From Candidatus Poribacteria bacterium (GTDB lineage Bacteria > Poribacteria > WGA-4E > WGA-3G): a stretch of DNA of 64,000 nt. Below the pieces are notes generated by a model. It made no database searches, was not told where the DNA came from, and was given only the letters and a program-made list of their open reading frames with translations. The stretch spans positions 128,001-192,000 of the forward strand of contig CAXXUA010000002.1 of the NCBI GenBank assembly GCA_963663765.2, read 5' to 3'. The translations under genes and the position numbers were made by a program. Positions 7,248-53,882 of this stretch are shown here, in pieces (the first letter of the stretch is position 1; the number at the start of each line of letters is the position of its first letter).

Positions 7248-7464
7248 CAGGACTTACGCAAAAACGGTAGGCGGGGAATGCCTAAAGAAGCATGCGCGTA
7301 TGGCATGCTCCATGATTCATACCCGGGGAATGCTTTATAGCATTCATACCGTTGATTTCTTGATTTGGTGCTTTGTAAGCGCGCCGGAAATCTAAAAAAA
7401 AGCTGATAATTACATCATTTTCATCATAATTCTTGATTAAAACAAGAAAACTGCGTAAGTCCTG
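7248..7464 (+). mobile_element. MITE family A copy; hairpin modules at site 1
   Basis: TIR CAGGACTTACGCA...TGCGTAAGTCCTG; 5-bp TSD TGTCT at 7243-7247 and 7465-7469. Confidence 0.9.
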
Positions 7465-7476
7465 TGTCTTATAGGA

Positions 7477-7785
7477 TAGGACTTACGCACCCAACGGTAG
7501 GCGGGGAATGCCTAAATGGTTCTTTCGGCAATTAATATTAGCATAAAATAATATTCCAATGCTGAAGAACCCAGTAGTCATCTGTTTAAGTTGAAGATCG
7601 TCAATGGAAACATATCATAAATACTTAGCAAGAAAACCACTAAAGAAGCATGCGCGTATGGCATGCTCCATGATTCATACCGTTGATTTGGTGCTGTGTA
7701 AGCGCGCCGGAAACCTAAAAAATGCTGAAAATTACATCGTTTTCGTCTTAATTCTTGATTGATCATGAAAACTGCGAAAGTCCTG
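7477..7785 (+). mobile_element. MITE family A copy carrying a nested 123-bp element
   Basis: TAGGACTTACGCA...TGCGAAAGTCCTG; flanks ATAGGA/TTAGGA. Confidence 0.8.
7517..7639. mobile_element. Nested MITE (TGGTT...AACCA ends)
   Basis: Absent from the otherwise matching copies at 7248 and 9765; flanked by CTAAA at 7512-7516 and 7640-7644. Confidence 0.75.
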
Positions 7786-7799
7786 TTAGGAGAAGATAT

Positions 7800-8672
7800 A
7801 TGGAAAAAAGTTTAATACATGAGGGTATTCCATTTAGTGAAGAAAAAACTGCACAGATTGCTCAACAGTTTTTTGACGATGGATTTGTATATATTCCTAA
7901 AGTACTAAGCGAAGACGAGGTTACTGCTCTCAGGGACAAGACAGATGCGTTTTTTGACGATCCTGAACTTGCAGAAAAAAGCAATCCTAACCTTGCTGAT
8001 GTACGATATATTCAGATGGGTACACACGCAGAAACAGGTGAAAAATTACCATTTATCTTACGGAATACGATTGAGCTTGATCCAATATTTAGAGATATGC
8101 TGCTTCGCGAACCGATTTTGAGTTTGGCAGAAGCGATTGTAGGACATAATTGCAAGTTTTGTGGGCAAAATGTACTACGGAATTTACCAGGTCTTTCAAT
8201 AAGCAAGTGGCACGTTGACGGTTCAGTACATTTTCCTGTTTCTGATGAGATGCCACGTCATGACCAACGTTTACGCATGCCAGTGATGTGGTTCACCGTT
8301 CAGATCGCTTTGAGTGATATTGATTCTATAGAGGAAGGACCAACGCAATATGTCAAAGGTAGTCATTACTCTGGTAGGCATCCTAATGATCAAGAAAACC
8401 CTGAATTTATTGGGAATAAACCTGTTTCTATCTATTGTAAAGCGGGTGACATTTATCTACAAGACCCACAATGTTGGCATCGCGGCGCACCAAACCTGTC
8501 CGACAAGACACGTTATATCTTACAATCTCAATATGCAGCACATTGGGCTTACTGGCGATTTAGTCTATGTAATGATGTCCCTGTTCCAAAAGAGGCACTT
8601 CAAGGAGCAAGTGATCGACTGATCAATCTTTTAGGACGTAGTCGACCGAATAGTAACGATATTCAAATTTGA
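7800..8672 (+). CDS. Phytanoyl-CoA dioxygenase (PhyH) family protein
   Basis: DGFVYI, WHVD (HxD), GSHY, KAGD, WHRG; start ATG 7800 after AGGAG. Confidence 0.88.
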   Translation: MEKSLIHEGIPFSEEKTAQIAQQFFDDGFVYIPKVLSEDEVTALRDKTDAFFDDPELAEKSNPNLADVRYIQMGTHAETGEKLPFILRNTIELDPIFRDMLLREPILSLAEAIVGHNCKFCGQNVLRNLPGLSISKWHVDGSVHFPVSDEMPRHDQRLRMPVMWFTVQIALSDIDSIEEGPTQYVKGSHYSGRHPNDQENPEFIGNKPVSIYCKAGDIYLQDPQCWHRGAPNLSDKTRYILQSQYAAHWAYWRFSLCNDVPVPKEALQGASDRLINLLGRSRPNSNDIQI

Positions 8673-8684
8673 AGGAGAACATCA

Positions 8685-9761
8685 ATGGAAAAACTAAAGA
8701 TTGCGCATATCGGTACGGGTAATCGTGGTACCAATACATATCTTCCACTGATTGCAAAATTGAAACAGGACTTGGAACTCGTAGCAGTATGTGATCTAAA
8801 TGAAAAAAGGGTGACTGAACAGGGAGAAAAGTATCAAGTACCCGCATATACAGACACAGAGCAGATGTTGGAAAATACAAAACCCGATATCTGCTCTATT
8901 GTTATCACACCCAGTAAAAACCATCTTCCTGGACTACTCTGCTCACAACACGGAGTAAGTTATTGTACTGAAACACCGATTAACACGGATCTGAAACGGG
9001 CAGATATGATGATAGAATCCGCCAAAGAACACGGTACGAAGTTGGAAGTAAATGAGAACTATTACCGACGACCATCCGAACGTATCAAACGGGAAATGAT
9101 TCTTGCAGGCATTTTCGGTACTGTAAATCTCGCATACAACGATTTTCGTGGACACGGTTATCACGGAATCGGTCTTATTCGAAGTTATGTAGGTTTTGAT
9201 AATGAACCCGTGCAAGTATATGCGTTTAATAAGAAGTTCAGTGTTCAGGAACACGAGTGGCGTAAAGGACAACCCAGAAAAAAGAACGAGGATTGGCAAC
9301 ATGCAGTGATAGAATTTGCCAATGGTGCTGTTGGAATATTCAACTTCAGCAGTCTATCCTATGGTTCACCTTTGCGCGGATTTAATGGCACAAAATTCTA
9401 TGCAGAACGCGGGATGTGTTTCCGTGAGGATGCCGTCATTCTAAATGACAACGCAGACACACAGCACCCCATATCCATTACAAGGAAAACAAACAACGTT
9501 GATGGCTATGACACTCTTGCTGCCCTCGTTGCAGACACTACCCCTGAAGTCGTATGGGAAAATCCATTACACTATTATCCGCTCAGTGATGGTGAAATCA
9601 CAGTCGCATCCGAAATAATGAGTATTGCAAATGCTGTACGCAATGATACCGAACCTGAATATGGTGCTTACAACGGACGAAAAGATAGAGAAATTGATGT
9701 TGCCATGGGACGTTCCATTGCAAAGAACGGTGCACCTGTAACTTTCCCATTTGAGTACTAA
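8685..9761 (+). CDS. Gfo/Idh/MocA family oxidoreductase
   Basis: IGTGNRG, VAVCD, ETP variant of EKP. Confidence 0.8.
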   Translation: MEKLKIAHIGTGNRGTNTYLPLIAKLKQDLELVAVCDLNEKRVTEQGEKYQVPAYTDTEQMLENTKPDICSIVITPSKNHLPGLLCSQHGVSYCTETPINTDLKRADMMIESAKEHGTKLEVNENYYRRPSERIKREMILAGIFGTVNLAYNDFRGHGYHGIGLIRSYVGFDNEPVQVYAFNKKFSVQEHEWRKGQPRKKNEDWQHAVIEFANGAVGIFNFSSLSYGSPLRGFNGTKFYAERGMCFREDAVILNDNADTQHPISITRKTNNVDGYDTLAALVADTTPEVVWENPLHYYPLSDGEITVASEIMSIANAVRNDTEPEYGAYNGRKDREIDVAMGRSIAKNGAPVTFPFEY

Positions 9762-9764
9762 CAA

Positions 9765-10006
9765 CAGGACTTATGCACCCAACGGTAGGCGGGGAATGCC
9801 TAAAGAAGCATGCGCGTATGGCATGCTCCATGATTCATACCCGGGGAATGCCAAATGGTATTCATACCCGGGGAATGCCAAAAGGCATTCATACCGTTGA
9901 TTTCTTGATTTGGTGCTTTGTAAGCGCGCTGGGAACTTAATAAATACTGAAAATTACATTATTTTCAGTATTTATTAATTGAATCATGTAAAATGCGTAA
10001 ATCCTG
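9765..10006 (+). mobile_element. MITE family A copy with three tandem hairpin units
   Basis: CAGGACTTATGCA...TGCGTAAATCCTG; three GGGAATGC units in 9792-9913. Confidence 0.82.
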
Positions 10007-10182: not shown

Positions 10183-10304
10183 CAGGACTTACGCACCCAA
10201 CGGTAGGCGTGCTTTGTAAGCGCGCTGGAAACCGAAAATATGCTGAAAATTACACCATTTTCGTCATTATTCTTCATCAAACCATGAAAACTGCGTAAGT
10301 CCTG
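10183..10304 (+). mobile_element. MITE family A copy, empty allele
   Basis: Perfect TIRs; TSD TTTAG at 10178-10182 and 10305-10309. Confidence 0.9.
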
Positions 10305-10396
10305 TTTAGAAGAAGTAGAGAATAGAGGTAGAGTGACAGTATCTAAATATCTACATATTACTAGACATTCCTTGATATTTATGTGATACTATATAC

Positions 10397-10984
10397 ATGA
10401 CTTATGTATCAGCGCGCAAAGCAAGTGAGCTGCTGGATTATACACCTGACCATTTACGGAGGTTGGCAAATGAAGGAAAGATTGATATTATCCGCACAGG
10501 AGGCGGACACAGACGCTATGATGTTGACGGATACATCAAAAGCAAATCCACATCAATTGCAACTGTTTGCTACTGCAGAGTATCCAGCACAAAGCAAAGA
10601 GAAGACCTTGAACGACAAGTTGAATATATGCGAAGTATCTACCCCGAAGCAGAAGTTATCCGAGACATCGGAAGCGGAATCAACTTCAAAAGAAAAGGGC
10701 TTAGAACCTTATTGGAACGGCTTATGCAAGGTGATAAGCTCAAAGTTGTTATTGCCCATCGGGATAGACTCGCCCGCTTCGGTATCGACCTTATACGGTA
10801 CCTCATTGAACAAAACGGTGGCGAACTCGTGGTTCTCGATCAAACAGAACACAGTCCGCAAGAAGAACTCACGTCGGATCTTCTCGCAATCCTGCACGTC
10901 TTCAGTTACAGAATGCACGGACTCCGAAGTTACCGTGACAAAATCAAAGAAGATAAGAGTTTATCCGACAACAGAACAACGTGA
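10397..10984 (+). CDS. tnpA: IS607 transposase TnpA (HTH + serine recombinase)
   Basis: N-terminal HTH with TGGGHRRY, catalytic YCRVSS, DIGSGINFKR, DRLARFG. Confidence 0.95.
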   Translation: MTYVSARKASELLDYTPDHLRRLANEGKIDIIRTGGGHRRYDVDGYIKSKSTSIATVCYCRVSSTKQREDLERQVEYMRSIYPEAEVIRDIGSGINFKRKGLRTLLERLMQGDKLKVVIAHRDRLARFGIDLIRYLIEQNGGELVVLDQTEHSPQEELTSDLLAILHVFSYRMHGLRSYRDKIKEDKSLSDNRTT

Positions 10985-12053
10985 AACACTGCGTCAGTGG
11001 TTTGGCACAGCACGTTTTACTTATAATAAAACAATTGCTTTGTTGAACGAAACAGACACAAAAGCGAATTGGAAAGCGATAAAAACAGGTATTCTTCACG
11101 ATCTTCCTGATTGGAGCAAAGAAACACCGTATCAAGTGAAATCTGTTGCTATCCGTGACGCTTGTATTGCTGTCCGAGAAGCAAAGCGAAAATGCAAGAA
11201 AACAGGTCAATATCAGTCTGTTTTTTTCAAATCCAAACGTCATCCATCAGATAGTATTTTCATACCAAAGTCTGCTATAAAACCTCGCGGTGTTTATCAC
11301 ACAGTGCTTGGTGATCTCAAAATGTCCGAGATGTTACCTGATAATATCTGTGACTCACGCCTCGTGAAAGAGAATGATAAATACTATCTCTGTGTTTCCT
11401 ATACTGTGACAACTCCGAAGCGAAAACCAAACGGAAGTGTTGTTGCTTTAGACCCTGGCGTGAGAACATTCCTCACATATTTCCATGAGCGTGGTTTCGG
11501 ATGGCTTGGACACCATGCTATCAATCGGATTCAAAGACTTTGTTCATACCTTGATAATCTTTTATCCCGTGCAATAAAAGCGACACAACAATCACGCAAG
11601 AATATGAGACGTGCTGCAAATCGCATCAGAAAACGTATCAGATATCTTGTTGACGAGTTGCATCATAAAATAGCACGTTTCCTTGTGGATACCTTTGATA
11701 TTATCCTACTCCCTACTTTTGAGACTTCAGATATGGTAATGCGTGGAAACCGCAAACTACACAAGAAGTCTGCCCGACAAATGTTGACACTGTCGCACTA
11801 CAGATTCAAACAGTTTCTAAAGCACAAAGCGAAAGAGACTGAATGTCTCGTCATTGATGTCTGTGAAGCATACACATCAAAAACAGTGTCGTGGAATGGT
11901 GAGATTAGAAAATCACTCGGTGGACGAAAGATAATAAAAGATAGCATGGGACTCAAGATGGACAGAGACTTGAATGGCGCACGCGGGATATTTTTGCGTG
12001 CTTTGGTAGATGAACCCTGGTTGCTTTCTATAAGCAACTTGCAAACCGTATAA
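10404..12053 (+). CDS. tnpB: IS607 TnpB with Fanzor-like rearranged RuvC; true start uncertain
   Basis: KIRVYPT..QWFGTARFTYN, ALDPGVRTF, ILLPTFE, CEAYTSK, DRDLNGARGI. Confidence 0.9.
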   Translation: MYQRAKQVSCWIIHLTIYGGWQMKERLILSAQEADTDAMMLTDTSKANPHQLQLFATAEYPAQSKEKTLNDKLNICEVSTPKQKLSETSEAESTSKEKGLEPYWNGLCKVISSKLLLPIGIDSPASVSTLYGTSLNKTVANSWFSIKQNTVRKKNSRRIFSQSCTSSVTECTDSEVTVTKSKKIRVYPTTEQRETLRQWFGTARFTYNKTIALLNETDTKANWKAIKTGILHDLPDWSKETPYQVKSVAIRDACIAVREAKRKCKKTGQYQSVFFKSKRHPSDSIFIPKSAIKPRGVYHTVLGDLKMSEMLPDNICDSRLVKENDKYYLCVSYTVTTPKRKPNGSVVALDPGVRTFLTYFHERGFGWLGHHAINRIQRLCSYLDNLLSRAIKATQQSRKNMRRAANRIRKRIRYLVDELHHKIARFLVDTFDIILLPTFETSDMVMRGNRKLHKKSARQMLTLSHYRFKQFLKHKAKETECLVIDVCEAYTSKTVSWNGEIRKSLGGRKIIKDSMGLKMDRDLNGARGIFLRALVDEPWLLSISNLQTV

Positions 12054-12111
12054 GATGTGAAATGCACAGCATTGCACGGAAATATACAGGTTAATATCAT
12101 CGGAGTAAATT

Positions 12112-40228: not shown

Positions 40229-40238
40229 TGGATAGTAG

Positions 40239-40609: not shown

Positions 40610-40732
40610 CAGGACTTACGCACACAACGGTAGGCGTGCTTTGTAAGCGCGCCGGAAAACCATAAAAACGCTGATAATGGCGTCATTTTCATCATAATTT
40701 TTGATTAAATCAAGAAAACTACGTAAGTCCTG
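40610..40732 (+). mobile_element. MITE family A copy, empty allele
   Basis: TIRs; TSD AATAG at 40605-40609 and 40733-40737. Confidence 0.9.
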
Positions 40733-40768
40733 AATAGAAATGGTATAATATAGTAAAAAGAGGCATGC

Positions 40769-41938: not shown

Positions 41939-44900
41939 AATTATGTAAATTGAAACTCAAGAATCTAAATAGTTTTCGTAATGATGTAGAAATAGATTTT
42001 GAAGAACCACCGTTAGATGACGCGTCACTCGTAGCAATTACCGGACCTACAGGTGCTGGTAAGACAACACTTTTGGACGCAATCTGTGTCGCACTATACG
42101 GTAAAACACCCCGCCTAACAGGAAGTGGAACTCGAAACCCAAGACATCTGATAAGTCATGGTGAAAATGAGGCGTTCGCAGAAGTCTATTTTGAGGTAAA
42201 CAAAAAACGATACCATGCAACTTGGTCTGTTAGACAAACAAAGAATACAAACTATCCCCCAACAACACAACTCTTCGATGAGAATGGGAAGTCTATTACT
42301 AAGAACGTTAGACAGGAAGTAGAATCCATTTTAGGACTGGATTTTTCTGCTTTTAAACGTTCAATCATGTTAGCGCAAGGCGATTTCGCCGCATTTTTAA
42401 GAGCAAGTAGTGAAGAAAGACGGGGTATACTGGAAGCCACAGCTGGTATATATATCTATGATTTACTAAAAGAACATTTGTTAGAAAAAGTCAGTGAGTT
42501 GAACAGGATTTATGATGAGGTGGATAGAAAAATTGAACAAATACCAGATTCCTCACAAGAACAGGTTGAAAAAGCAACAGCAGAACTAAAAAGTCTGAAA
42601 ACGGAAGTAGAAAAGTTAGAGGAACAGCATCATAGAATTGAAACGGAAAAGAGTCAAGAAACAAAACGGAAAGAAAACTTTGAAAACCTGCAAACTGCAG
42701 AAAAAAGACTAAGAGAACTTATCAATCAACAACTGAACATAGACGAACTGAAAACCGAACTTGAACGCGCTGAACGAGCAAACCAACTGCGGGCTGAAAA
42801 GCAGTCTTATGAGACAGCCAAGGCAGACCACACAAATGCTGAATCTGAACTAAAGCAAGCAAAAAAAGACCTTACTGATGCGAAAACGGAGTTAAATACG
42901 CATAAAGATCAGTTTGAAAAAAAAGAAAAGACATATTTGAAAACATCTGATAATCGAAATAAGAAGCTAACTATTTATACAGAGGCGAAATCGGATGTGG
43001 CGCGCGCAAAAGAAAAGTTTTCGGAAGCAGAGGATCGTTCTCCTACTTTACAGTCACTGAATAATAATATAGACACTGTAGATAACACATTAACACAGAA
43101 TACTACCCAACGAGATGAACTGGAAAGACAAATTAACGAAGCACAAAATTACATCAAAGAAAATCCGTTGCCATCTGACCGACAACAACGACTCGTCAGA
43201 GTGAGTGAGTTATTGACTGAAATTAACTCACAACAAGCAAACTTAGACGCAAAAACTAATACGCAGGCAGAACACATCTCAGAAATACAGGAATTGGAAG
43301 AGCAAATCACAGAACTTACAAACAAACGAGAGAAACTCAACGAAAAAAAGAAGAAACTATCCAAATCTCTTAAACAAGTTGAAACTCAATTCAAAAAACT
43401 TCAAGAAAAAGGAACACTTGAAGAATGGCAAAGCAGAAGATCTAAAGCAATAAGGGCGCAACTCATAGCACAGCAATTTGAAATTACCGGTAAGCAACTT
43501 GGTGATGAAACTGAGAACTTAGAGTCATTACAGCAACATAATGGGACACTTTCTGAAGACTTAGAAGACCTTCAGAGTAAAATATTGGATGCTGATCAAC
43601 TCTGTAAAAGCGAAAATGCTGAAGTTGAGAAGTTGGAAGCAAACATCCAATTGGCAAAATTAGCAGACCACGTAAATGAACTACGCGAACAATTAGAATC
43701 AGGTGAACCTTGTCCGGTCTGTGGTGCTACAGACCATCCTGATGCTGACAAAGTTGAAATTGAAAGTAAAGAACAAGTAAAAGTCATTCAGAAATCCTTA
43801 AAAAAAGCAAAAGCGAAAGCAAAAAAGGCACAGGAACAGCACCAGAAATTTTTGAATGACCAAGTACGTACCGAACATGATAAAGAATCCACTGCAAATG
43901 AAATTGCTGAATGCAAAGAGTTGCTTGAAAACTTGCGAACTGATATAAACGATATTCATGAGAATTGGCGAGAACTGTATGAATCTACAAACATCTCATC
44001 AGATTGGGTTCAAGAAAAACTGACAGAAGCAGACGCTGCGATTGAAAACCACAACACCACTCATGATACTTACAATGAAAAAACATATAGACTAAATTCT
44101 ATTACTCAAGAACTTGAGACCTGTGAACGCGATCATAAACGCGAAAGCGAACAAATGGAAAATACCCAAAACCGATTACATACTGTAACAGAACAGATAG
44201 AAGACCTAAAGGAAGACATCAAGGCTACCCAGGAACGTTTTTGGGAGTCAATGCCAAACCCTTTCCACGAAGATACACCCGCTGAAGCTGTCAAGAACTT
44301 CAAGAATAAGATTGATAAGGTTGATAAATACGATCAGAAACTTACTAAAATGGACACTGAACTCCAGAAACTTATTGTAAATATTAAGCATAACGAAATT
44401 AATATTACTAACCTGAACCAACAGCTTAAGGAAGTTAAGGGTAGAATCAAGCAGTATCAGAGTGAAGGTGAATCTATACTGGAAATCGTGCGGGAGAAAA
44501 CTAACGGATTAGAAACCGAAAATGAAATAAACGATGCTATCCAGAAGTTGGACACTAACTTAAACGAAAAAAAGAAAGCACATGATGATGCTCAGCAAGT
44601 ATTACAGGATACCAAAAATCTACACACACAAAAAACAACTGCACACACATTCTGTTTTGAACGATTGGAAGAAATGCACAATAGACTTGAGTCTGAAAAA
44701 GAAATATATTTCAATAAATTGGAAAAAGAAGGATTTGAGTCCCCCGACACTCATCAAAACGCGTTTCGCGATGATACACAGATGCAAGAAATAATTGAGA
44801 AAATTGAAACCCATGAAACTGATAAGCAAAACCATAAACAAACTATTTCTCAACTGTCACCACAATTTAAGAAAACCCCGTTTGATTCAGATACACTAAT

Positions 44901-45546
44901 AAAGATTTCTGAAAAAGAAGATGAAATTGATGCACAGATTCAACACACACGAGAACAAATTGGTGCAAAACAAAATGAACTTAAAAACTTGAAAGATGCT
45001 GTTAAAAAACGAGAAGAACTTGATTCCGAATTACAAGCAGCAAAGCAAGAACTAAAACGTTGGCAAACACTGCAAGAAACGATTCCCGCAAATGCATTGC
45101 GCGATTTCGCATTAGATATTACATTCAAACAGGTCAGTGTTATAGCCAACGCTCACTTGGAATACCTAACATCTGAAAGGTATCAACTCAAAGTAGAAAA
45201 CATAGGAAAATTGACCGTCCTTGATAGGTGGAACGCAAATGAAGAACGACCGGTTGAAACATTATCTGGTGGAGAATCGTTTTTAACAAGTCTTGCTCTG
45301 GCACTTGCTCTTTCTGAACTCAGCAAAGGCCGTTCACAACTCAATTCTCTCTTTCTTGACGAGGGTTTTGGGACATTGGATGCAGAAACATTAGATATTG
45401 CTATTGCTGCTTTGGAAGGACTCCGCATGCAAGGTAGGAGTATCTATCTAATCAGTCACATTCAGGAATTAACAAGACGTTTACCCGTTAAAATAAATGT
45501 TCGGAAACGGGGTAATGGAAGTTCGTATGTTGAAGTAAGAGATTAA
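41935..45546 (+). CDS. sbcC: Exonuclease SbcCD subunit C (SMC-like ATPase)
   Basis: GPTGAGKTT, coiled coils, CPVCG hook, LSGGE, FLDEGFG. Confidence 0.95.
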   Translation: MKLCKLKLKNLNSFRNDVEIDFEEPPLDDASLVAITGPTGAGKTTLLDAICVALYGKTPRLTGSGTRNPRHLISHGENEAFAEVYFEVNKKRYHATWSVRQTKNTNYPPTTQLFDENGKSITKNVRQEVESILGLDFSAFKRSIMLAQGDFAAFLRASSEERRGILEATAGIYIYDLLKEHLLEKVSELNRIYDEVDRKIEQIPDSSQEQVEKATAELKSLKTEVEKLEEQHHRIETEKSQETKRKENFENLQTAEKRLRELINQQLNIDELKTELERAERANQLRAEKQSYETAKADHTNAESELKQAKKDLTDAKTELNTHKDQFEKKEKTYLKTSDNRNKKLTIYTEAKSDVARAKEKFSEAEDRSPTLQSLNNNIDTVDNTLTQNTTQRDELERQINEAQNYIKENPLPSDRQQRLVRVSELLTEINSQQANLDAKTNTQAEHISEIQELEEQITELTNKREKLNEKKKKLSKSLKQVETQFKKLQEKGTLEEWQSRRSKAIRAQLIAQQFEITGKQLGDETENLESLQQHNGTLSEDLEDLQSKILDADQLCKSENAEVEKLEANIQLAKLADHVNELREQLESGEPCPVCGATDHPDADKVEIESKEQVKVIQKSLKKAKAKAKKAQEQHQKFLNDQVRTEHDKESTANEIAECKELLENLRTDINDIHENWRELYESTNISSDWVQEKLTEADAAIENHNTTHDTYNEKTYRLNSITQELETCERDHKRESEQMENTQNRLHTVTEQIEDLKEDIKATQERFWESMPNPFHEDTPAEAVKNFKNKIDKVDKYDQKLTKMDTELQKLIVNIKHNEINITNLNQQLKEVKGRIKQYQSEGESILEIVREKTNGLETENEINDAIQKLDTNLNEKKKAHDDAQQVLQDTKNLHTQKTTAHTFCFERLEEMHNRLESEKEIYFNKLEKEGFESPDTHQNAFRDDTQMQEIIEKIETHETDKQNHKQTISQLSPQFKKTPFDSDTLIKISEKEDEIDAQIQHTREQIGAKQNELKNLKDAVKKREELDSELQAAKQELKRWQTLQETIPANALRDFALDITFKQVSVIANAHLEYLTSERYQLKVENIGKLTVLDRWNANEERPVETLSGGESFLTSLALALALSELSKGRSQLNSLFLDEGFGTLDAETLDIAIAALEGLRMQGRSIYLISHIQELTRRLPVKINVRKRGNGSSYVEVRD

Positions 45547-45628
45547 CGTAAATTAATGTACGTTTTTTGGTATACTTATAATAGAGATGTTATTTGTAAC
45601 AAGTGTCTAATTGTTCCTATGAATAAAA

Positions 45629-45818
45629 CAGGACTTATGCAGTTTTCATGATTTGATGAAGAATTATTACGAAAATGGTGTATTTTTCAGCATTTTTTCG
45701 GTTTCCAGCGCGCTTACAAAGCACCAAATCAAGAAATCAACGGTATGAATCATGGCGAATGCCATACGCGCATTCGCCAATATGCATTCCCCGTCTACAA
45801 TTGGGCGCGTAAGTACTG
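45629..45818 (-). mobile_element. MITE family A copy, reverse orientation, site 1 filled
   Basis: CAGGACTTATGCA...CGCGTAAGTACTG; module at 45724-45791. Confidence 0.82.
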
Positions 45819-45908
45819 TAATATTTACTATTTTTGAACTCAATCTCAGGAAAATAATTATACTGTACGTTCTATGATAAATCATTGTAACATAATTGGA
45901 GGCATTAT

Positions 45909-46667
45909 ATGCAATTTGGTTTCATGTCGTCTGTCTGTCCGCCGTTCACGTTGGCAGAACTCATTGACAAAGCAAAACAATACAACTACGAACATTTGGA
46001 ATTCCGTGTAGAATGGGGACACAAACACGGTGTTGAACTGGATTCTTCATCCCAACAACTAAATGATGCAAAAAAGCTCTTAGCTGACAGTGGGATAACA
46101 TTATCATGTATCGCAACAGGGGTCAGATTCATTAATCCCGACGCACAAAAACGGACAGAACAAGTTGAACTATTGAAACGGTACATAGACCTTGCACAAA
46201 AGATGGATGCAAAGAATATACGTTTCTTTGGTGACCCTGTACCAAAAACACCCGTTGAAATAGATAAAACATTAGATTGGGAAGCAGATGGTATCCGCGC
46301 TTGTGACGGTTTAGCTGGTGATGCAGACGTCGCACTCTGTTTAGAGACACACGGTAATCTTCTCGCAAGCTACTTAGCAGAAGTCTTATACCGTGCCGAA
46401 GCACAAAACACTTATGTGAACTGGCACGCAGCACATCATGTCAGACACGGACAACCTGTGGATGTCGCTTATGTACATCTACGAAATAAAATAAGACATG
46501 CACATGTGAGTTTCGGTAATGAAGGTGACATGCCAGATACAGAAAGGGATTCTCTGCAACTGCTCAAAAAAGATAACTATGAGGGGTTTATCTCTATAGA
46601 GGTTATCAATCCAAAAGATTCAGAGGCAGTACTCAAACGACATGCAGAACTATATAAAACTCTCTGA
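45909..46667 (+). CDS. Sugar phosphate isomerase/epimerase (xylose isomerase-like TIM barrel)
   Basis: LEFR, LETHG, HAHV, YEGFISIE. Confidence 0.8.
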   Translation: MQFGFMSSVCPPFTLAELIDKAKQYNYEHLEFRVEWGHKHGVELDSSSQQLNDAKKLLADSGITLSCIATGVRFINPDAQKRTEQVELLKRYIDLAQKMDAKNIRFFGDPVPKTPVEIDKTLDWEADGIRACDGLAGDADVALCLETHGNLLASYLAEVLYRAEAQNTYVNWHAAHHVRHGQPVDVAYVHLRNKIRHAHVSFGNEGDMPDTERDSLQLLKKDNYEGFISIEVINPKDSEAVLKRHAELYKTL

Positions 46668-46744
46668 TTCGGTTGACGTTATAAGACAAGGTAGAATTAA
46701 CGATAAACGGTGGGCATGCAGGACGCATGTCTACCAAATATCAT

Positions 46745-47074
46745 CTATACACTAAATGATTCTCCGCAACCACAAGTGTTTTTTGCATTCGGATTGCTTA
46801 TCTTGAAACCAGACTCCATTAGACCGTCATTGTAATCTAATACCGAACCCGCAAGATATAGTGAACTGCGCGGATCAATGAACACTCTTAGACCGTGAAA
46901 CTCATAAACTCTATCTGTCTCTTTTTTGCCACTGAATTCAAGGCTATATTGAAATCCTGAACATCCACCCCCAATAACCTGCATGCGTAACCCAAGATCC
47001 TCTTCGGTACTACTATCGTTGCTACTTATGAGTGTAATAGCTTTTTGTGCTGCAGCTTCTGTTACATTAATCAT
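46745..47074 (-). CDS. iscA: A-type Fe-S carrier (IscA/ErpA/HesB family)
   Basis: GGGCSGFQY and NPNAKNTCGCGESF. Confidence 0.92.
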   Translation of the reverse strand: MINVTEAAAQKAITLISSNDSSTEEDLGLRMQVIGGGCSGFQYSLEFSGKKETDRVYEFHGLRVFIDPRSSLYLAGSVLDYNDGLMESGFKISNPNAKNTCGCGESFSV

Positions 47075-47448
47075 TGCAATGTCTCCTGTTTTGAAAATGA
47101 ACTTACTATCGCATTTTTGAGCACTTCTTCTGCGTAGGTCGCAAAACGTAATTTGTCCTCTGGTAGTCCACCTAATGCGTTTGAAATATCCGATTCGGTG
47201 ATATTATCTGCAGCTGAAATGCTGTTATTGATGACCAATTCTGTAAGCACTGAACCACTTGCTATCACTGTTGGACACCCGAACGCACGAAACTTCGCAT
47301 CAATAACAATACCATCTGATATTTTTAACGTTAGTTTCAGCATCTCCCCACTAGCTGCAGAACCGATTGTCGCTGTACCATCCGCATCAGCAATTGTACC
47401 AACATTAAGTGGATTTTCAAAATGTTCAGTTACCTCTTGAGAATACAT
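47071..47448 (-). CDS. IscU/NifU-N-like protein with degenerate ligands
   Basis: YS..V.EHFENPLNVG and FGC; only one Cys in the protein. Confidence 0.8.
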   Translation of the reverse strand: MYSQEVTEHFENPLNVGTIADADGTATIGSAASGEMLKLTLKISDGIVIDAKFRAFGCPTVIASGSVLTELVINNSISAADNITESDISNALGGLPEDKLRFATYAEEVLKNAIVSSFSKQETLQ

Positions 47449-47630
47449 AGCACATTACCAACTAAGACATACAACGCATCACAATAACTTCTTTTATTCC
47501 ATATTATAACTTATAATTATTCAAATGTCAATAACTTTACACATACCAACTACAATTCCCACTTGATAATTTTTCAAGTTTTGTTTATTATATAGGGACA
47601 CTTTGGTTGATTACCGGAATCATTTATTAA

Positions 47631-47822
47631 CAGGACTTACGCACCTAACGGTAGGCGCGCTTTGAAGGCGGGGAATGCCAAAAGGCATTCATACCCGGGG
47701 AATGCCAAAAGGCATTCATACCGTTGATTTCTTGATTTGGCGCTGGAAACCAAAAAAATGCTGAAAATTACACCTTTTTCGTCATAATTCTACATCAAAT
47801 TATGAAAACTGCGTAAGTCCTG
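47631..47822 (+). mobile_element. MITE family A copy, site 2 filled
   Basis: Perfect TIRs; TSD ATTAA at 47626-47630 and 47823-47827; module at 47671-47740. Confidence 0.9.
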
Positions 47823-47842
47823 ATTAAAAGGAGGACACGAGT

Positions 47843-48865
47843 ATGGCAGGTAAACTGAAAGTGGCAGCTGTAGGTTGTGGTGGAATCGGATTGTTACATC
47901 AGCACGGTTATCTGAAACATCAAGGTGCAGAATTGGTGGCTGTGTGTGATATAGACACTAACAAAGCAAAAAAACGCGCAGATGAACTTAGTATTGACAA
48001 GTGGTATCCATCCATTAAAGAAATGCTTGCGAATGAAGAGTGTGACCTCGTCGACGTAGTGACTGCAGACAATTTACATTTTGAACCTGTGATGGAGTGT
48101 CTTGAAGCTGGAAAACATGTTATTTCTGAAAAACCGCTGGCTCTTGACATAAATGAAGCAGAACAGATGGTGACAAAAGCAGAAGAAAAAGGTGTCCACC
48201 TCGCTATAGACTACAATAGACGCTTTGCACCAGGTTATGTACAAGCAAGAAAATGGTTTGACAATAATGCTATCGGACAGACATATTATCTTGATATGAA
48301 ACTATCACAAGGTGGACCCGCCTCAACTTGGAAAGGTGAGTATTATCTACTCTACGAATTACAGACGCATGCACTGGACCTATTACGCTGGTTTGGTGGA
48401 GAGATTGTTGGTGTTTGTGCAGAAATGGTAAAACCAAGAAAAAATGAAGCACGCGAAGGTGAAAACGCTTGTTTTACAAGCATGGCAATCTCACTGCGAT
48501 ATGAAACAGAAACTGTCGCAACGTTGTTGGCAAGTTGGGATAGCGATTTTATCCATCCAATTGAGCGACTTGAAATATGCGGTTCAAAAGGTGAGATCCT
48601 TGTTGATAATGTCCTCAACAAAGCAACACTCATGAAACGCGACAACCAAGTTGTTGAAGAATATCGTCCTTCTATTTTCCGAAATGAACAACTCGCTTTT
48701 GATGGCACTTTCGCGCTACGTATGGCTGCATTGGTTGATGACCTACTAAATAACCGAATCCCAGAACCTACTGGTAAGGACGGTTTGCAGGCAATGCGGA
48801 TCACTGAAGCAATCGTGGAATCATGGAAAGAAAAACGTGAAATCATGGTAAAAATAGACAATTAA
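47843..48865 (+). CDS. Gfo/Idh/MocA family oxidoreductase
   Basis: VGCGGIG, HVISEKP, YNRRF. Confidence 0.88.
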   Translation: MAGKLKVAAVGCGGIGLLHQHGYLKHQGAELVAVCDIDTNKAKKRADELSIDKWYPSIKEMLANEECDLVDVVTADNLHFEPVMECLEAGKHVISEKPLALDINEAEQMVTKAEEKGVHLAIDYNRRFAPGYVQARKWFDNNAIGQTYYLDMKLSQGGPASTWKGEYYLLYELQTHALDLLRWFGGEIVGVCAEMVKPRKNEAREGENACFTSMAISLRYETETVATLLASWDSDFIHPIERLEICGSKGEILVDNVLNKATLMKRDNQVVEEYRPSIFRNEQLAFDGTFALRMAALVDDLLNNRIPEPTGKDGLQAMRITEAIVESWKEKREIMVKIDN

Positions 48866-48888
48866 CACTGTGCAATACTACATTAAAC

Positions 48889-49090
48889 CAGGACTTACGC
48901 ATTAAACGGTAGACGAGGAATGGTATATAACATTCATACCTAGGGAATGCCATTGGGCGAAGGCGCGTACGGCATTCGCAGTGGTTCATACCGTTGATTT
49001 GCCGGTCGCGATTTTCTCAGGAAACCACCAAAATACCTAAAACTGAATAACCCTGGCTTAAGTGTGTAATTAATTCTAAAATCTACCATA
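48889..49090 (+). repeat. Chimeric repeat: MITE A left end, hairpin modules, ends of other repeat families
   Basis: CAGGACTTACGCA, degenerate modules, CTGAATAACCCTGGC (reverse complement at about 53519), AATTCTAAAATCTACCATA. Confidence 0.6.
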
Positions 49091-49123
49091 ATATGATACA
49101 ATTGAAATAATAGGGCAGATATA

Positions 49124-50035
49124 ATGGACTGGAAAGAACCCCTACAAGATATAATAACCCAACCCACCACACGACTACGGTTCGCTGAACCACTTGCAAA
49201 GCATACACACTTCGGAATCGGTGGAGAAACAACCGCATTAATAGAAGTCAGCACAAGAGAAGAATTAGCAGCGTTAGCACGTTTTCACAGAAAATGGAAT
49301 ATACCGGTCGCAATCATCGGTAGAGGTGCAAATATGCTGGTAAGTGATAAAGGTTTCAGCGGAATCTGCATAAAATTAATCGGTGAATTAGCACAACTAA
49401 ATGTTGATGGAAATGTTGTTACCGTGGGCGCAGGATTTCCTTTACCAGCACTCTCTAAAGAGATGTCCAGAAAGGGTCTAAGCGGCGTGGAATTTGTTCT
49501 CGGCATACCGGGTACTGTCGGGGGCGCACTCACCATGAACGCTGGGGCATGGGGAAGCAGTTTTGGGGATGTTGTAACAAACGTAACTGTGATGCAGGAT
49601 ACAGGTGAACTCCTAAAGTTAACGCGCTATGAAGCAAACTTTGAATATCGGCGCAGCTGTCTGCATACCTACTTCTGCATCGTAGGGGCAACTTTAACAC
49701 TCACACCTGGAGAAGTAGATACAATTACGGCTAAAATGAACAAACTCTTTAAACAGAAAATAGAAACGCAACCTTTTGTTGAAGAGAATGCCGGGTGTAT
49801 GTTCAAAAATCCACCAGGAGACTCGGCTGGACGACTCATAGACATCAGCGGATTGAAAGGACACCGTATTGGCGGTGCAGAAGTGTCCACAATACACGGA
49901 AATTTTATCCTCAATACCAACAACGCTACAGCAGCAGACGTCTTAGAATTGGTTGACTACATCCAAAATCAGGTGCGTAATAAAACAGGTATCTCACTCG
50001 AAACAGAGGTAAAACGCTTAGGTTTCAAGACATAG
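49124..50035 (+). CDS. murB: UDP-N-acetylenolpyruvoylglucosamine reductase
   Basis: GRGANML, GIPGTVGGA..MNAGA, AGCMFKNP, HGNFI, LETEV. Confidence 0.95.
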   Translation: MDWKEPLQDIITQPTTRLRFAEPLAKHTHFGIGGETTALIEVSTREELAALARFHRKWNIPVAIIGRGANMLVSDKGFSGICIKLIGELAQLNVDGNVVTVGAGFPLPALSKEMSRKGLSGVEFVLGIPGTVGGALTMNAGAWGSSFGDVVTNVTVMQDTGELLKLTRYEANFEYRRSCLHTYFCIVGATLTLTPGEVDTITAKMNKLFKQKIETQPFVEENAGCMFKNPPGDSAGRLIDISGLKGHRIGGAEVSTIHGNFILNTNNATAADVLELVDYIQNQVRNKTGISLETEVKRLGFKT

Positions 50036-50122
50036 AAAATTCATCCCTGACAATATAATTCTTTTACAACCCATTTTAAAAAAAGTCAGATAGCAAAAAG
50101 AACAGCTGAATTTAGGATAAAA

Positions 50123-51346
50123 CTAAGGACGAATGACCGTGCCGTCCATCCGACGAACCGGTGACCAACCCCCATTGAGCGGATGTTCAGGAAACGGAAA
50201 ACGTGCAGCAAGTTCCTCATTTACATCTATGCCGAGTCCAGAAGCTTCATTAACCCAAAAACAACCATCCCGAATCTCTGGACACCCTGGGAAAACCTCT
50301 TTGGTATTCTCACCGAAGACATGTTGCTCCTGAATACCGAAGTTGTAACACGCTAAATCTAAGGCAACATTTGCTGCATGTCCAACAGGAGAAACATCAC
50401 CCGGTCCGTGCCAAGCAGTACGCACACCGAAAAACTCACACAACGCCGCAAGTTTCCGAGCTGGACTAATACCCCCGATTTGCGAGATATGCACACGTAT
50501 AAAATCAATGAGTCGGTCCTTGATCAGATGAACATACTCATTCGGGTTGTTAAACAACTCTCCCATCGCAATTGGGATACTCGTTTGTTGCCGCATCAGT
50601 TGGAAATAGTCCACATCTTCAGGTGCAAACGGGTCTTCAAGAAAAAACAGGTTATACGGTTCCAAGCCTTTAGCAAGATTGATCGCTTGAATGGGCGGTA
50701 TCCGTTCATGCACATCATGCAGAAGTTCTACCTCATCCCCTAACTTATTTCGAAGATGATCAAAAAGTTTGATGACGGTATTGACATAAGGCGTGGGTTC
50801 AAATGCTGGAGAACTACGCTTTCCACCACCCGCACCATAAGTAGTATAACCAGGAATCGCAACCTGTGCACGAACATAACGATACCCTTCTTCCATATAC
50901 CGCCTTACACTGTTCTCAACATGCTCAAAACTGCCACCACCTGCATGCGCATAGAGTGTTGCTGCTTCACGACATTTTCCACCCAATAGTTGATAAACGG
51001 GCATATTTGCACGCTTCCCCATAATGTCCCACAGGGCAATGTCCACACCACTGAGAGCGTTGTTCAAAACCGGTCCATTTCGCCAATACGAACTGACAAA
51101 ACTTGTTTGAAAAATATCTTCTATGTTGCTTGGATCTTTCCCAATCAAGAAAGGTTTAAGGTACTCATCAACAGCTGTGGCAACAGCAAGCGGTCGTTGT
51201 GTAAACGTTGCACAACCAACACCGTATAAACCAGGTTCACTCGTTTCAACCTTTACAACGACAAGCCGAATCCCATCAGGCGCAGTCAGAATAGTTTTGA
51301 TGTCTGTTATCTTCAAAATTGCAGTTCTCCTATTATCTATTACCAA
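50123..51346 (-). CDS. Mannonate dehydratase-like (RspA/ManD) enolase-superfamily enzyme
   Basis: GCATF, YWRNGP, LHDVHER, FLED, MGE, WHGPGDVSP. Confidence 0.88.
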   Translation of the reverse strand: MVIDNRRTAILKITDIKTILTAPDGIRLVVVKVETSEPGLYGVGCATFTQRPLAVATAVDEYLKPFLIGKDPSNIEDIFQTSFVSSYWRNGPVLNNALSGVDIALWDIMGKRANMPVYQLLGGKCREAATLYAHAGGGSFEHVENSVRRYMEEGYRYVRAQVAIPGYTTYGAGGGKRSSPAFEPTPYVNTVIKLFDHLRNKLGDEVELLHDVHERIPPIQAINLAKGLEPYNLFFLEDPFAPEDVDYFQLMRQQTSIPIAMGELFNNPNEYVHLIKDRLIDFIRVHISQIGGISPARKLAALCEFFGVRTAWHGPGDVSPVGHAANVALDLACYNFGIQEQHVFGENTKEVFPGCPEIRDGCFWVNEASGLGIDVNEELAARFPFPEHPLNGGWSPVRRMDGTVIRP

Positions 51347-52053
51347 ATTAACCTAAATTGTAAGGACAGGTCTCAAGGGAATGCCGAAAGACAATCATAC
51401 CGTTGATTTGGTTCCCACCCGTGTTCTCTATACTAAAAACAATACACATCACGTTAATTGGGTATAATTTGTTTAGTATGCTAAGTTCTTATGCTAAAAT
51501 TTACCAAACTGAATAGGGCTTGTCAAGCGAAATCTGACGAAGGGATGTGAAAAGTTCTTTCTACAACAGACGCGTCAATTTATGGATTTTAACCTCTTGT
51601 GGGAGGGGTTTTCAACCCCGATTACAGTAAGACATATAATTAATTGGACATTTTGAGCATCAAACATTTAGTTTGTGCTGATGCAGACACAAACTAAATG
51701 AAGATTAATTTATTAATTCGGTAATAAAATATTTCTCCAACGGTAGGCGGGGGAATGCCTAAATGGCATCCATACCCGGGGAATGCCTTACTGGCATTCA
51801 TACCGTTGATTTGGAGGTCGCTCCTACCAAATAAAAGAATCGGATACTTACATGACAGCCAATATGGTAAATTGTAGAAATGTAAACTTATTTTCAAATT
51901 TCACCATAGTTGTTTTTTTCAAAATTTCGCAAAAACAAGAAACAGCCTTAAACCCATACCACGACACGGTCGAGAACACTTATGAAAATAGGATAAAAAA
52001 CAAGAAAAAACAACTAAAAAATTACGCGATTACACAGGTTACTCATATTTTCT

Positions 52054-52082
52054 TTGACAATCATGACATGACAAAGTATAAT
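52054..52082 (+). promoter_or_regulatory. Perfect-consensus sigma70 promoter
   Basis: TTGACA (52054-52059), 17 bp, TATAAT (52077-52082). Confidence 0.7.
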
Positions 52083-52129
52083 ATAGCACATTATTTTTTC
52101 ACAATTCTAATTACCTATGAGTGAATAGG

Positions 52130-52308
52130 ATGAGAAATCCGTTTTCAAATATATTCAATAAGTACTCCAAAAAGGTCGGACTTCCCCCTAGCATACTCAT
52201 ATATGCTGGTGAAGAACGGGATGAATCCACAAAAATTGAGCTGATTGATTACAATGACACGCACTGTCAAGAAAGTATAGTTGAATCCATCAATGATTAT
52301 GTTAGTTA
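52130..52308 (+). pseudogene. corA: CorA Mg/Co transporter N-terminal fragment
   Basis: SKKVGLPPSILIYAGE..IELIDYN matches the CorA N-terminus; interrupted by a MITE and the remainder is missing. Confidence 0.7.
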
Positions 52309-52501
52309 CAGGACTTACGCACCTAACGGTAGGCGGGGAATGCCAAAACGGCATTCATACCGTTGATTTGGCGCTTTGTAAGCGGGGAATGCCAAAAGGC
52401 ATTCATACCGTTGATTTGGCGCTGGAAACACAAATAATGTTGAAAATTACATCATTTTCATCACAATTCTTGATTAAATCATGAAAACTGCGTAAGTCCT
52501 G
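52309..52501 (+). mobile_element. MITE family A copy, both sites filled
   Basis: Perfect TIRs; TSD AGTTA at 52304-52308 and 52502-52506; modules at 52336-52371 and 52385-52419. Confidence 0.92.
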
Positions 52502-52536
52502 AGTTATTGTTATCATATGGGTGTGAAGGAGTTATT

Positions 52537-53133
52537 ATGCAATTCAATTCAAGTAATAAACATTGTACACCATTATTACTACTTTTAATTTATATTGCAT
52601 CATTAAGTGGTTGTGATCAGTATGATAATTTGAAGAACAACCCACCCAAAATCAACAGTCTTGATGTTCCTGAAAAGGTTCAATATGGTGAAACAGTTGA
52701 ATTCAAAGTTTCTACTTTTGATGCTGAAGAGGATACCTTAACCTATTTGTGGTACGTTTCGGATGGATCATTAGTTGATGATACCAATCCTATCGTAAAA
52801 TGGATAGCTCCTGAATTACCAGATAAGGAAGTCGTACCATCAGTTACAGTTACAGTGTACATCAATGTTCGAGACGAAGGTGAAGATGATATTTCCCAAT
52901 CTGCTTCAATATCAGTTTATTCAAAAGTTTATGAAGTAGCAAACACACTCAGTGGAGAATATGAACTTCTAAGAACCCAAGTTGACGAGGCCACATTAGA
53001 TCCTTCAAGCGGAACTATGCGTTTGACCATTTCTACGTTTACAAGTGAATTTGATACAGGAGACCAATTCTACTCAGGCGCTTATGAACTGGTAGAACCC
53101 TTTGATGAAAATATCAGAACAAAACAATGGTGA
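52537..53133 (+). CDS. Lipoprotein with PKD/Ig-like domain, possibly truncated
   Basis: Lipobox LSGC, NNPPKI, DAEEDTLTYLW. Confidence 0.6.
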   Translation: MQFNSSNKHCTPLLLLLIYIASLSGCDQYDNLKNNPPKINSLDVPEKVQYGETVEFKVSTFDAEEDTLTYLWYVSDGSLVDDTNPIVKWIAPELPDKEVVPSVTVTVYINVRDEGEDDISQSASISVYSKVYEVANTLSGEYELLRTQVDEATLDPSSGTMRLTISTFTSEFDTGDQFYSGAYELVEPFDENIRTKQW

Positions 53134-53491
53134 AAGAATCATTGTTCCTGACAATACAACAATTTCTGATGAAGCTATTAAATTGATTGAAGAAAAAGCA
53201 ATAACAGATGCAAAAAATGATGCAAAAAAACATATTAATAAAACTATTTGGTTTTCTGTTGGGTGCTTTCTACCAGTGGTTGGACCCATATATTCTCAAA
53301 GAAAAATCAAAACTATACCACTCGCGAGGACCCTTGGAAAATCACCTGAATATATCGCATTCTACACAGATAACTATCGTCTTGAAATAAAAAAACAACG
53401 ATTCACTTGGGGGTTAAGTGGGTGTATTGTTGGGGGACTCACAGACGCATGTTTGATCGGCATTCTTATTAATAGATATGTAATTCATTGA
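53102..53491 (+). CDS. Hypothetical membrane protein, possibly 5'-truncated
   Basis: DAKNDA..WFSVGC, GKSPEYIAFYTD, C-terminal TM. Confidence 0.5.
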   Translation: MMKISEQNNGERIIVPDNTTISDEAIKLIEEKAITDAKNDAKKHINKTIWFSVGCFLPVVGPIYSQRKIKTIPLARTLGKSPEYIAFYTDNYRLEIKKQRFTWGLSGCIVGGLTDACLIGILINRYVIH

Positions 53492-53882
53492 TTCAGAATT
53501 CATTAGTAAAGGCAAAAAGCCAGGGTTATTCAGTCTTCAATATTTTTGATAGTATTTTGCTATGTCGTTAATATTATGTAATACCATCTTATCCATGTCT
53601 TTAGTTCCGTAGGAACGACATAGAAGAATAAACATATCGTCCCTACCGAATCAACGCCAAATGCGCCAAATCAAGAAATCAACGGTATGAATGCCTTTTG
53701 GCATTCCCCGTGTGGCATTTGGCGGGACTAAAGAGCGATATTCATGTTTCAATAATGTAGAATTGATGCGTAAAGTTCGGTTAGGAAACCGAACCTGGAT
53801 ATTAACTTTCAGTAAATCTCAAGAACAGAAAACTCTTAAAACTGAATATCCCTGGCAAAAGGCGGATAAGTGTAGTTTTAAT

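Follow-up and report, generated by a model that had tools for sequence, protein, structure and literature searches.

A small hairpin that fills some copies of a repeat and is missing from other copies of the same repeat raises the question of whether it moves on its own account and, if so, by what means. The question is posed here by a stretch of 64 000 bp (the window) in a genome of Candidatus Poribacteria (GenBank assembly GCA_963663765.2, G000; 6.35 Mb in 15 contigs, ~41 % G+C, 97.8 % complete), namely positions 128001–192000 of contig CAXXUA010000002.1 (C2:128001–192000). In it, copies of a MITE (miniature inverted-repeat transposable element) are found with and without a hairpin module, here called M1. 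A sequence-only reading of the window had proposed a site-selective micro-mobile element of ~35 bp, inserted at GCG^YGC and moved in trans by an HUH/Y1 enzyme, an IS110-type recombinase or an RNA-templated route. With moderate confidence, we instead regard M1 as a non-coding micro-repeat family of one poribacterial genus, similar to repetitive extragenic palindromic (REP) sequences and to the small dispersed repeats (SDRs) of cyanobacteria, with rare founding insertions and secondary spread. The module enters G+C-rich palindromes without terminal inverted repeats (TIRs) or target site duplications (TSDs), often to the nucleotide.

At up to 2 mismatches, CATTCATACCGTTGATT is matched 11 times in the window, where 0.02 matches are expected, and none of 100 shuffled sequences reached 11. 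Genome-wide, there are 678 hairpin units, mostly of 26 nt (310) or 27 nt (344), in 550 arrays. Each unit is a bulged hairpin with a lower stem GG/CC, an upper stem GAATGCC/GGCATTC and a loop of 4–5 nt, and folded as DNA it gives z-scores of −2.4 to −2.9. Three pairs of the upper stem covary (pair 1: GC 570, AT 30, GT 16, AC 13; pair 3: CG 514, TA 43). As the copies share ancestry and are not independent, these are not counts of events, and the chi-square and Fisher values reported below are overstated. The units lie head to tail, with 1 unit in 445 arrays, 2 in 91, 3 in 9, 4 in 3, and 5 and 7 in one array each, and they are followed by a tail of no octamer (49 arrays), 1 (277), 2 (170), 3 (35), 4 (15) or 5 (4). 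The module is therefore not the fixed ~35-mer first described, but one to seven hairpin units with a tail of variable length. GTTGATTT opens the tail in 446 cases, and the octamers that come after it, which start with C and not G, read CTTGATTT (253); GG ends 361 of the 550 arrays and is missing from about one-third. Unit number and octamer number are correlated (Spearman's rho 0.48), one octamer being found in 272 of the 445 one-unit arrays and two octamers in 70 of the 91 two-unit arrays. This co-increase looks like nested self-insertion at the joint of unit and tail, though the reconstruction is inexact.

One tail is common to several hairpins, M1 (~420 copies), M2 (124), M3 (12), M4 (15) and a fifth (4), and the stems of M2, M3 and M4 differ from one another by paired, compensated changes. 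M2 consists of the hairpin CCAAATGC/GCATTTGG and the same GTTGATT tail as M1. Its host junction, AGTCCCG^TAGGGAC, has 386 empty counterparts, and the host junction of M4, which ends in CAACCCCG^ATTT and lies in another REP, has 33. The description of the module as devoid of TIR, TSD and open reading frame (ORF) holds: there is no duplication at the reconstructed junctions, and the TIR and TSD of DDE-type MITEs are absent at every reconstructed M1 junction. No Rfam family matched the window at gathering thresholds, and no exact module match was found in viral contigs.

The host MITE is itself a genuine element, with 270 copies, a 13 bp TIR (CAGGACTTACGCA) and 5 bp TSDs (ATTAA, TTTAG, AGTTA and TGTCT among them). 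On the left it has a REP-like hairpin (REP-B), GTAG followed by GCGYGC-TTTGTAA-GCGCGC, which is also found on its own and in long tandem arrays and of which 817 exact copies were counted. The two insertion points recognized earlier, sites 1 and 2, each lie at the middle of one stem arm of this hairpin. Some MITEs lack the 13 nt that separate the two sites. Long inserts at the MITE sites proved to be nested repeats or REP-B tandem arrays, with no coding elements among them. One such array, at C2:50452–51304 and thus outside the window, has at least 27 REP-B units with a period of 32 nt, and arrays of this type occupy site 2 in some MITEs.

However, the MITE is only one of at least 10 unrelated host contexts of the module in this genome. 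The hosts include REP-B, the loop of REP-C, REP-D, a REP-A variant, heptamer arrays ending in CCTGGTTCAGAC, the loop of M2, and units and tails of the module itself, and the arrays fall into 227 junction classes. Common to these contexts is a short palindrome rich in G+C, which the module enters at a stem arm or within the loop, be it in a REP hairpin, in the REP-like hairpin of the MITE, in the module's own family or in a heptamer array. The junction of AACGGTAGGCG with TGCTTTGT was found filled 79 times and empty 108 times, that of CCCTGCAGGCG with TGCTTTGT 37 and 92 times, and that of AATGCCATACG with CGCATTTG 48 and 56 times; CAGAGACCC^CGCCC is a clean insertion with 7 empty counterparts. 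Removal of the module restores these empty junctions with an ambiguity of 1 nt (G) and no duplication. The earlier statement that deletion regenerates the empty junction is thus correct for the main contexts, but not for all. At site 2, filled copies mostly read GTAGGCG and empty copies GTAAGCG, so that deletion does not give back the common empty allele, and the REP-C and REP-A2 junctions are imprecise, the loop TCCC or a dinucleotide AG having been replaced. The left flank of the module also varies with the context (AGGC, ATAC, ACCC or TCCC).

All copies reported in the sequence-only reading, filled, empty or outside the MITE, were recovered at their coordinates. Site 1 is filled in the MITEs at 7249–7463 (+; TIR CAGGACTTACGCA, TSD TGTCT), 7478–7784 (+), 9766–10005 (+) and 45629–45823 (−). 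The M1 array of the first (7274–7368) has an M2-like hairpin in the loop of its first unit, then a second unit and 2 octamers. In the second (7504–7691, one octamer), the loop of the M1 unit is split by an insert of ~120 nt and an M2-like hairpin; the insert is A+T-rich, and nesting within this one MITE reaches three levels. The third holds a 3-unit array with 2 octamers (9792–9913), and the fourth an M1 at 45724–45791 whose loop holds a nested M2-like hairpin. Site 2 is filled in the MITE at 47632–47821 (+; TSD ATTAA), where 47670–47740 contains 2 units of the CAAAAG-loop type and 2 octamers, and both sites are filled in that at 52310–52500 (+; TSD AGTTA; site 1 52335–52371, site 2 52384–52419). 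Both sites are empty in the MITEs at 10184–10303 (+; TSD TTTAG), 22133–22252 (+) and 40611–40731 (+); the REP-B-like hairpin of the first, GCGTGC-TTTGTAA-GCGCGC, folds at −7.5 kcal/mol. Outside intact MITEs, a single M1 unit with 1 octamer (51376–51411, +) lies within another repeat, of the GACAGGTCTC...CCGTGTTCTC family. A 2-unit array with 1 octamer (M1 51750–51814, within 51750–51830, +) is a chimeric joint, with a left flank of REP-B type (ACGGTAGGCG) and a right flank of reverse REP-C (GGAGGTCGCTCCTACC). A further joint of this kind, at 48890–49015 (+), consists of a MITE left end, a degenerate M1 array (48915–49000) and the right half of a REP-C hairpin, without a right TIR; this degenerate array had not been listed before. 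At 53645–53724 (−), an M2 inserted in the host hairpin AGTCCCG^TAGGGAC carries M1 in its own loop (53666–53709, at ACG^CGC).

The independence of the module from any single host repeat is shown by its distribution across the genus. An exact 17-mer of the module was present in all 24 sampled genomes of the genus (1–424 copies) and in none of 16 genomes representing other families in the order, and it is identical between species with 66–93 % gene identity. The module is plentiful in genomes with no exact REP-B (208 copies in G016, 220 in G023, 132 in G004 and 96 in G001), and in G016, G004, G001, G023, G017, G003, G009, G020 and G007 it is hosted by other palindromes or heptamer arrays typical of the species. 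The proposal that the module is an element separate from the MITE is therefore borne out, both by its unrelated hosts in this genome and by its different hosts in different species. The low-copy genomes have their copies in a variety of hosts, and a single conserved locus that might be a master copy was not seen. In the closed genome G024, ~35 copies lie within 100 kb (C1:4.32–4.42 Mb), and seven copies at 1,044,374–1,044,600 form a perfect tandem array with a 35-nt period.

In the nearest relative genome (G045, 82–91 % identity), no shared host with differing occupancy was found; the MITEs at 7249–7784, 45629–45823 and 47632–47821 and the repeat blocks at 51339–51465 (~126 bp, holding 51376–51411) and 53489–53902 are simply absent. 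A 20-mer of the module was found in at least 120 metagenome contig stretches, 80 of which were retained as loci; comparison of these all against all yielded 8 long pairs, each 100 % identical and free of indels, and the 22-nt unique flank of the MITE at 52310 had no metagenome match. Seven read runs contain the window stretch (Logan contigs), and four of them (X1, X2, X4 and X6) were compared over 40000–54500, where their short-read contigs stop at every MITE or module copy. X1 and X6 carry a related strain with many base differences. A single read joint that skips 47669–47740 lies within MITE sequence and has a high depth, so it may derive from other copies and gives no allele information. 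Strains were not seen to differ by insertion or excision of the module among the 80 metagenome loci and the four run contig sets.

How the copies arose can be approached through the variants they carry. The variant of the first unit depends strongly on the context (chi-square 974, df 36). Arrays of the site-1 type have CTAAATG (72) or CTAAACG (10) in 82 of 102 cases, while CAAAAG is found in 32 of 40 at site 2, CTTAATG in 38 of 56 in the M2 loop, CATACGC in 26 of 35 in the CTGCAGGC form of REP-B, CATAAG in 13 of 22 in heptamer arrays and CAATAG in 15 of 16 in the REP-A variant. Site-2 inserts are M1 in 38 of 48 cases and REP-B expansions in the other ~10. The left flank GTAGGCG accompanies 30 of the 38 M1-filled copies and none of 174 empty copies; flank G scored against site-2 filling gave 28 of 40 filled copies and 0 of 174 empty copies (Fisher's test, 6e-26). 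At site 1, T is enriched in the right flank of filled copies (56/63 versus 83/129, p = 3e-4). Context-private variants and a linked flank base point to few founding insertions followed by co-amplification and gene conversion, and the filled MITEs are mostly not independent insertions.

Occupancy was also mapped on a tree of 232 MITE backbones from which the linked flank column had been masked. At site 2, occupancy changes 35 times against 42.9 ± 1.95 (none of 500 shuffles is as low), a clustering that fits descent, whereas site-1 occupancy is not clustered (65 changes against 64.9 ± 3.1), and 9 of 20 groups of identical backbones are mixed in occupancy. Chimeric joints, the two in the window and others elsewhere in the genome, are recombination through the module. 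The filling of two different sites had been put forward as an argument against one ancestor; for the MITE, this argument largely gives way to one insertion plus recombination.

Some of these data weigh against an origin of most filled copies by secondary spread. Each context has minority variants (at the site-1 type 6 CAAAAG and 3 CTTAATG, and in the M2 loop 10 CTAAATG). The backbone has only ~118 nt, which makes the tree weak, and the filled classes used in the occupancy counts and in the tree include the ~10 of 48 site-2 inserts that are REP-B rather than M1. Lack of clustering at site 1 would also be expected from many independent events if the donor were always local.

On the reading that we favour, in which founding insertions are rare and spread is secondary, each host context would have received roughly one founding insertion or a few, and most copies, including most cases of filled as opposed to empty MITE alleles, would be secondary. 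They could have arisen by co-amplification with the host, through MITE transposition, REP spread or tandem duplication, and by gene conversion or recombination between host copies, which would also yield the chimeric joints. For the founding step, a tentative candidate is a Y1 HUH enzyme that works in trans on single strands and is directed by hairpins, and something not yet identified has to be given the same weight. Template switching at stalled hairpins without any enzyme, or repair between hairpins, has nearly the same likelihood as the Y1 route.

The Y1 route draws on the shape of the module and on the enzymes present. Read on its minus strand, the module is GGTAT followed by a 7 bp palindrome (GAATGCC-loop-GGCATTC) with a 4-nt loop, and the REPs of this genus are GGTAG followed by a palindrome of ~8 bp with a 4-nt loop. 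REPs are associated with tyrosine transposases (RAYTs), their dissemination by RAYTs is still called unresolved in one account, and TnpA-REP cuts single-stranded REPs next to the hairpin (PMC8266576). These three points, REP-like form, unexplained REP dissemination and TnpA-REP cleavage, make a Y1 route in trans plausible but unproven. Y1 HUH genes exist in this genome, namely four TnpA genes of the IS200/IS605 family and RAYTs, which are an intact gene of 159 aa embedded in REP-A arrays (C4:621598–622074), a frameshifted gene cut by the contig end and preceded by REP-B arrays (C10:24997–25277), and a 35-aa fragment beside REP-C (C5:1704569–1704673). In a survey of 40 genus genomes, Y1_Tnp genes were found in 36 and RAYT-like matches in 29. 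Many of the 30 RAYT loci examined (L107–L136) are flanked by their own REP family, with at least seven REP families represented.

Several results weigh against the Y1 route. The module does not directly flank any of these 30 loci, although a cognate RAYT might have been missed as the 30 were drawn from 59 listed RAYT-like matches, and in this genome none of the three RAYT loci has the module as its own flanking REP. A copy is present upstream of the REP-B array of the C10 RAYT, and the nearest copies otherwise are ~730 nt (L136) and >1 kb (L112) away. Three near-complete genomes rich in the module have no Y1_Tnp match (G001, 97 % complete, 96 copies; G010, 94 %, 104 copies; G024, 92 %, 116 copies), while G009 has 21 Y1 matches but 3 exact copies of the module. 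The ends of the resident IS200/IS605 elements, copies of which are 98 % identical, are unlike the module. The Y1 mover suggested by the sequence-only reading thus has its enzymes but, among the loci examined, none flanked by the module. The other enzymes suggested fared less well: this genome has no match to IS110 (PF01548), a control search being positive in 6 of 14 reference genomes, and none to reverse transcriptase (RVT_1, Pfam), even though it has the highest copy number.

A further possibility, doubtful in our view, is that M1–M4 owe their propagation to none of the known movers of small repeats. The mover might be a conserved structure-specific nuclease or recombinase of the host that reads the shared GTTGATTT tail, or the process might be a purely replicative copying from hairpin to hairpin. 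The three module-rich genomes without Y1, the lack of IS110 and reverse transcriptase in this genome, the lack of a module-flanked RAYT among the loci examined and the invariant tail on four different hairpins are all compatible with a mover of this kind. If it exists, 'parasitic hairpins' of less than 40 nt can invade palindromes and persist throughout a genus without a transposase of their own, and the same would account for the cyanobacterial SDR puzzle.

Among the explanations that compete with rare founding insertions and secondary spread as a whole, the one that survives best, though we consider it unlikely, dispenses with a dedicated enzyme altogether. Template switching, gene conversion or double-strand break repair between hairpin repeats would then suffice, guided by micro-homology at palindromes where forks stall or hairpin nucleases cut. 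Co-conversion of flank bases, the imprecise REP-C and REP-A2 junctions, the chimeric left and right flanks, the 13-nt deletion between the MITE sites, tandem expansions and left flanks that resemble the joint between two units (CATAC(C), ACCC) are all in keeping with it, as is an abundance that is independent of Y1 genes. The window also encodes a 1203-aa SbcC/Rad50-like ATPase (41935–45546, +), but such genes are common in bacteria; the SbcC/Rad50 family cuts DNA hairpins, and the protein may be relevant to palindrome-rich genomes. Against an enzyme-free origin stand the clean insertions that have no obvious homology to other filled hosts (CAGAGACCC^CGCCC and the hosts of M4 and M2), the identity of the 17-mer between species that are otherwise well diverged, which calls for constraint or an active source, and the retention of one tail on four different hairpins.

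Constraint could also mean function, with selection keeping the module as a protein-binding or structural DNA or RNA element that is useful to the host, and its constancy having nothing to do with mobility. The 17-mer is indeed found even in genomes with 1–9 copies and in some without Y1, the hairpin is preserved by compensatory changes, and the placement is strongly intergenic: stop-to-stop ORFs of 150 aa or more cover 79.7 % of the genome but contain only 57 of 543 arrays. The strand coherence, too, is regional, and it is common to the module, REP-B, REP-C and the MITE. We nevertheless find this explanation improbable. The exact copy number ranges from 1 to 424 between species, positions in the window are not orthologous to those in the closest relative, and no Rfam family is matched. 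Nor is there a preferred direction relative to flanking genes (147 same, 148 opposite), and arrays are more frequent in divergent than in convergent spacers (176 versus 68), which speaks against a role as terminator.

Orientation shows a weak link to the sign of the GC skew (odds ratio 2.8, from copies that are not independent) and none to the strand of ORFs, and in G024, for which 100 of 116 positions were listed, it is patchy with no clean two-domain pattern. Filled and empty MITEs are oriented alike (41 co-oriented and 8 anti versus 55 and 13, p = 0.81), and we have not used the regional strand bias as evidence on mechanism. The MITE itself is ~81 % co-oriented with the local majority of REP-A and REP-C (96 versus 21 anti), which is unexpected for a DDE-type element.

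The explanation closest to the original proposal, a micro-transposon that is mobilized in trans and inserts repeatedly at the hexamer GCG^YGC, each filled MITE being a separate event, now appears quite improbable. Precise junctions without TSD and with many empty counterparts, the use of two MITE sites and of the ACG^CGC site in M2, the unclustered occupancy of site 1 and the mixed occupancy of identical backbones would all fit it. However, GCG^YGC accounts for only 183 of the 550 array junctions, with ACG^CGC at 53 and other junctions at the remainder, and all 183 lie within hairpins of the REP-B/MITE type (176 with the strict pattern and 7 near variants). The genome contains 7,025 GCGYGC sites on the two strands, ~2,366 of them in REP-B arms, and the ~4,600 sites elsewhere are unused. 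The hexamer as such is thus not the selective target, the junctions at it being confined to one REP family. The site-specific variants, the flank base that accompanies the filling of site 2 and the clustering of site-2 occupancy by descent tell further against separate events.

Two explanations are highly improbable. RNA-templated spread, reportedly proposed for the cyanobacterial SDRs, has that analogy and a hairpin that could fold as RNA to commend it, but this near-complete genome has no RVT_1 match and the module has no strand preference relative to genes; an immobile module that is an ancestral part of its hosts, with empty copies arising by deletion, is conceivable where precise loss can occur between short repeats and slippage varies the tail and unit numbers, but not easily reconciled with so many unrelated hosts here and more in other species, with hosts that are plentiful yet unfilled where the module is scarce and vice versa, or with empty copies outnumbering filled ones in every major host.

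Two further features of the window are recorded. An insertion sequence (IS) at 10320–12100 (ORF 10404–12053, +) encodes a 549-aa protein of the TnpB/OrfB_IS605 type, with HTH_OrfB_IS605, OrfB_IS605 and Cas12f1-like TNB domains and no Pfam match in the first ~178 aa. At least five copies with 99 % identity are present in this genome, and it is also found in relatives. The possibility that the module is a piece of a known IS was examined and rejected, as it is absent from the ends of this TnpB element and from those of IS200/IS605 elements. A TonB-receptor-like ORF (4721–6742) has its 50-odd best relatives in metagenome-assembled genomes of Candidatus Poribacteria, with up to 91 % identity.

These findings bear on several wider points. 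How elements of 20–40 nt move has been an open question since the cyanobacterial SDRs, and the present genus, with ~40 species-level genomes (several closed), 1 to >400 copies, changing hosts and Y1-free members, makes comparative tests of mechanism possible. Filled and empty alleles within one genome can come from hitch-hiking or gene conversion and cannot be counted as transposition events. In practical terms, short-read assemblies of sponge symbionts are interrupted by each copy of these nested repeats. A limited literature search found no description of REP-like or SDR-like repeats in Poribacteria, though one may exist in print.

Among known systems, DDE-type MITEs are, like the module, small, non-coding and multi-copy, and its host is itself a MITE, but the module is ~35 nt and has neither TIR nor TSD. 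The IS200/IS605 family transposes as single strands by means of HUH enzymes (PMC8266576). The module shares with it the lack of TIR and TSD and a hairpin-directed, strand-specific insertion, and four TnpA genes are available in this genome. It differs in having one kind of hairpin instead of distinct left-end and right-end hairpins and in showing no fixed short left target across its contexts, and the ends of the resident ISs are unrelated to it.

The likeness to REPs, bacterial interspersed mosaic elements (BIMEs) and REP doublets forming hairpins (REPINs) is closer. It includes a GTAx tetranucleotide before a short palindrome, on one strand, hundreds of intergenic copies without TIR or TSD, and mosaics with other repeats in a genus rich in RAYT–REP pairs; insertion of REPs into small palindromes has been described as well (PMC3733652). 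However, the tetranucleotide is GTAT and not GTAG, and the arrays are head to tail with an octamer tail and not inverted doublets, inverted pairs having been noticed only occasionally. The module has the high copy number and the intergenic location of a REPtron, but its abundance does not track the presence of Y1 or RAYT genes, being high in three Y1-free genomes. With no RAYT flanked by the module among the loci examined, it fails the REPtron test for want of a cognate RAYT.

The nearest parallel among described phenomena is with the SDRs. Elhai and colleagues are said to have described in 2008 (Genome Res 18:1484) the SDR1–8 of Nostocaceae as non-coding units of 21–27 nt whose hairpins show compensatory changes and which are embedded in mini-transposons, in tandem heptamer arrays and in their own copies. 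By description, the module matches these in its units of 26–27 nt, in its covarying hairpin, in its location within a MITE, heptamer arrays, M2 and its own arrays, and in precise insertion into a G+C palindrome. SDR5 was inserted precisely between nt 3 and 4 of HIP1, the highly iterated palindrome of cyanobacteria (PMC4390886), and SDRs have been reported as confined to Nostocaceae (PMC5861425). As its host lies outside the Nostocaceae, the module cannot be a member of the SDRs by taxon, and the cyanobacterial frame in which the sequence-only reading had placed it does not apply: the genome is of the Poribacteria type and HIP1 (GCGATCGC) occurs in it just 29 times, so that the comparison with SDRs and HIP1 is one of analogy only. 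The module further differs in an octamer tail that is common to several hairpin families and in hosts that are mainly REP hairpins of the RAYT type. What it provides is a second, unrelated lineage that shows an SDR-like phenomenon.

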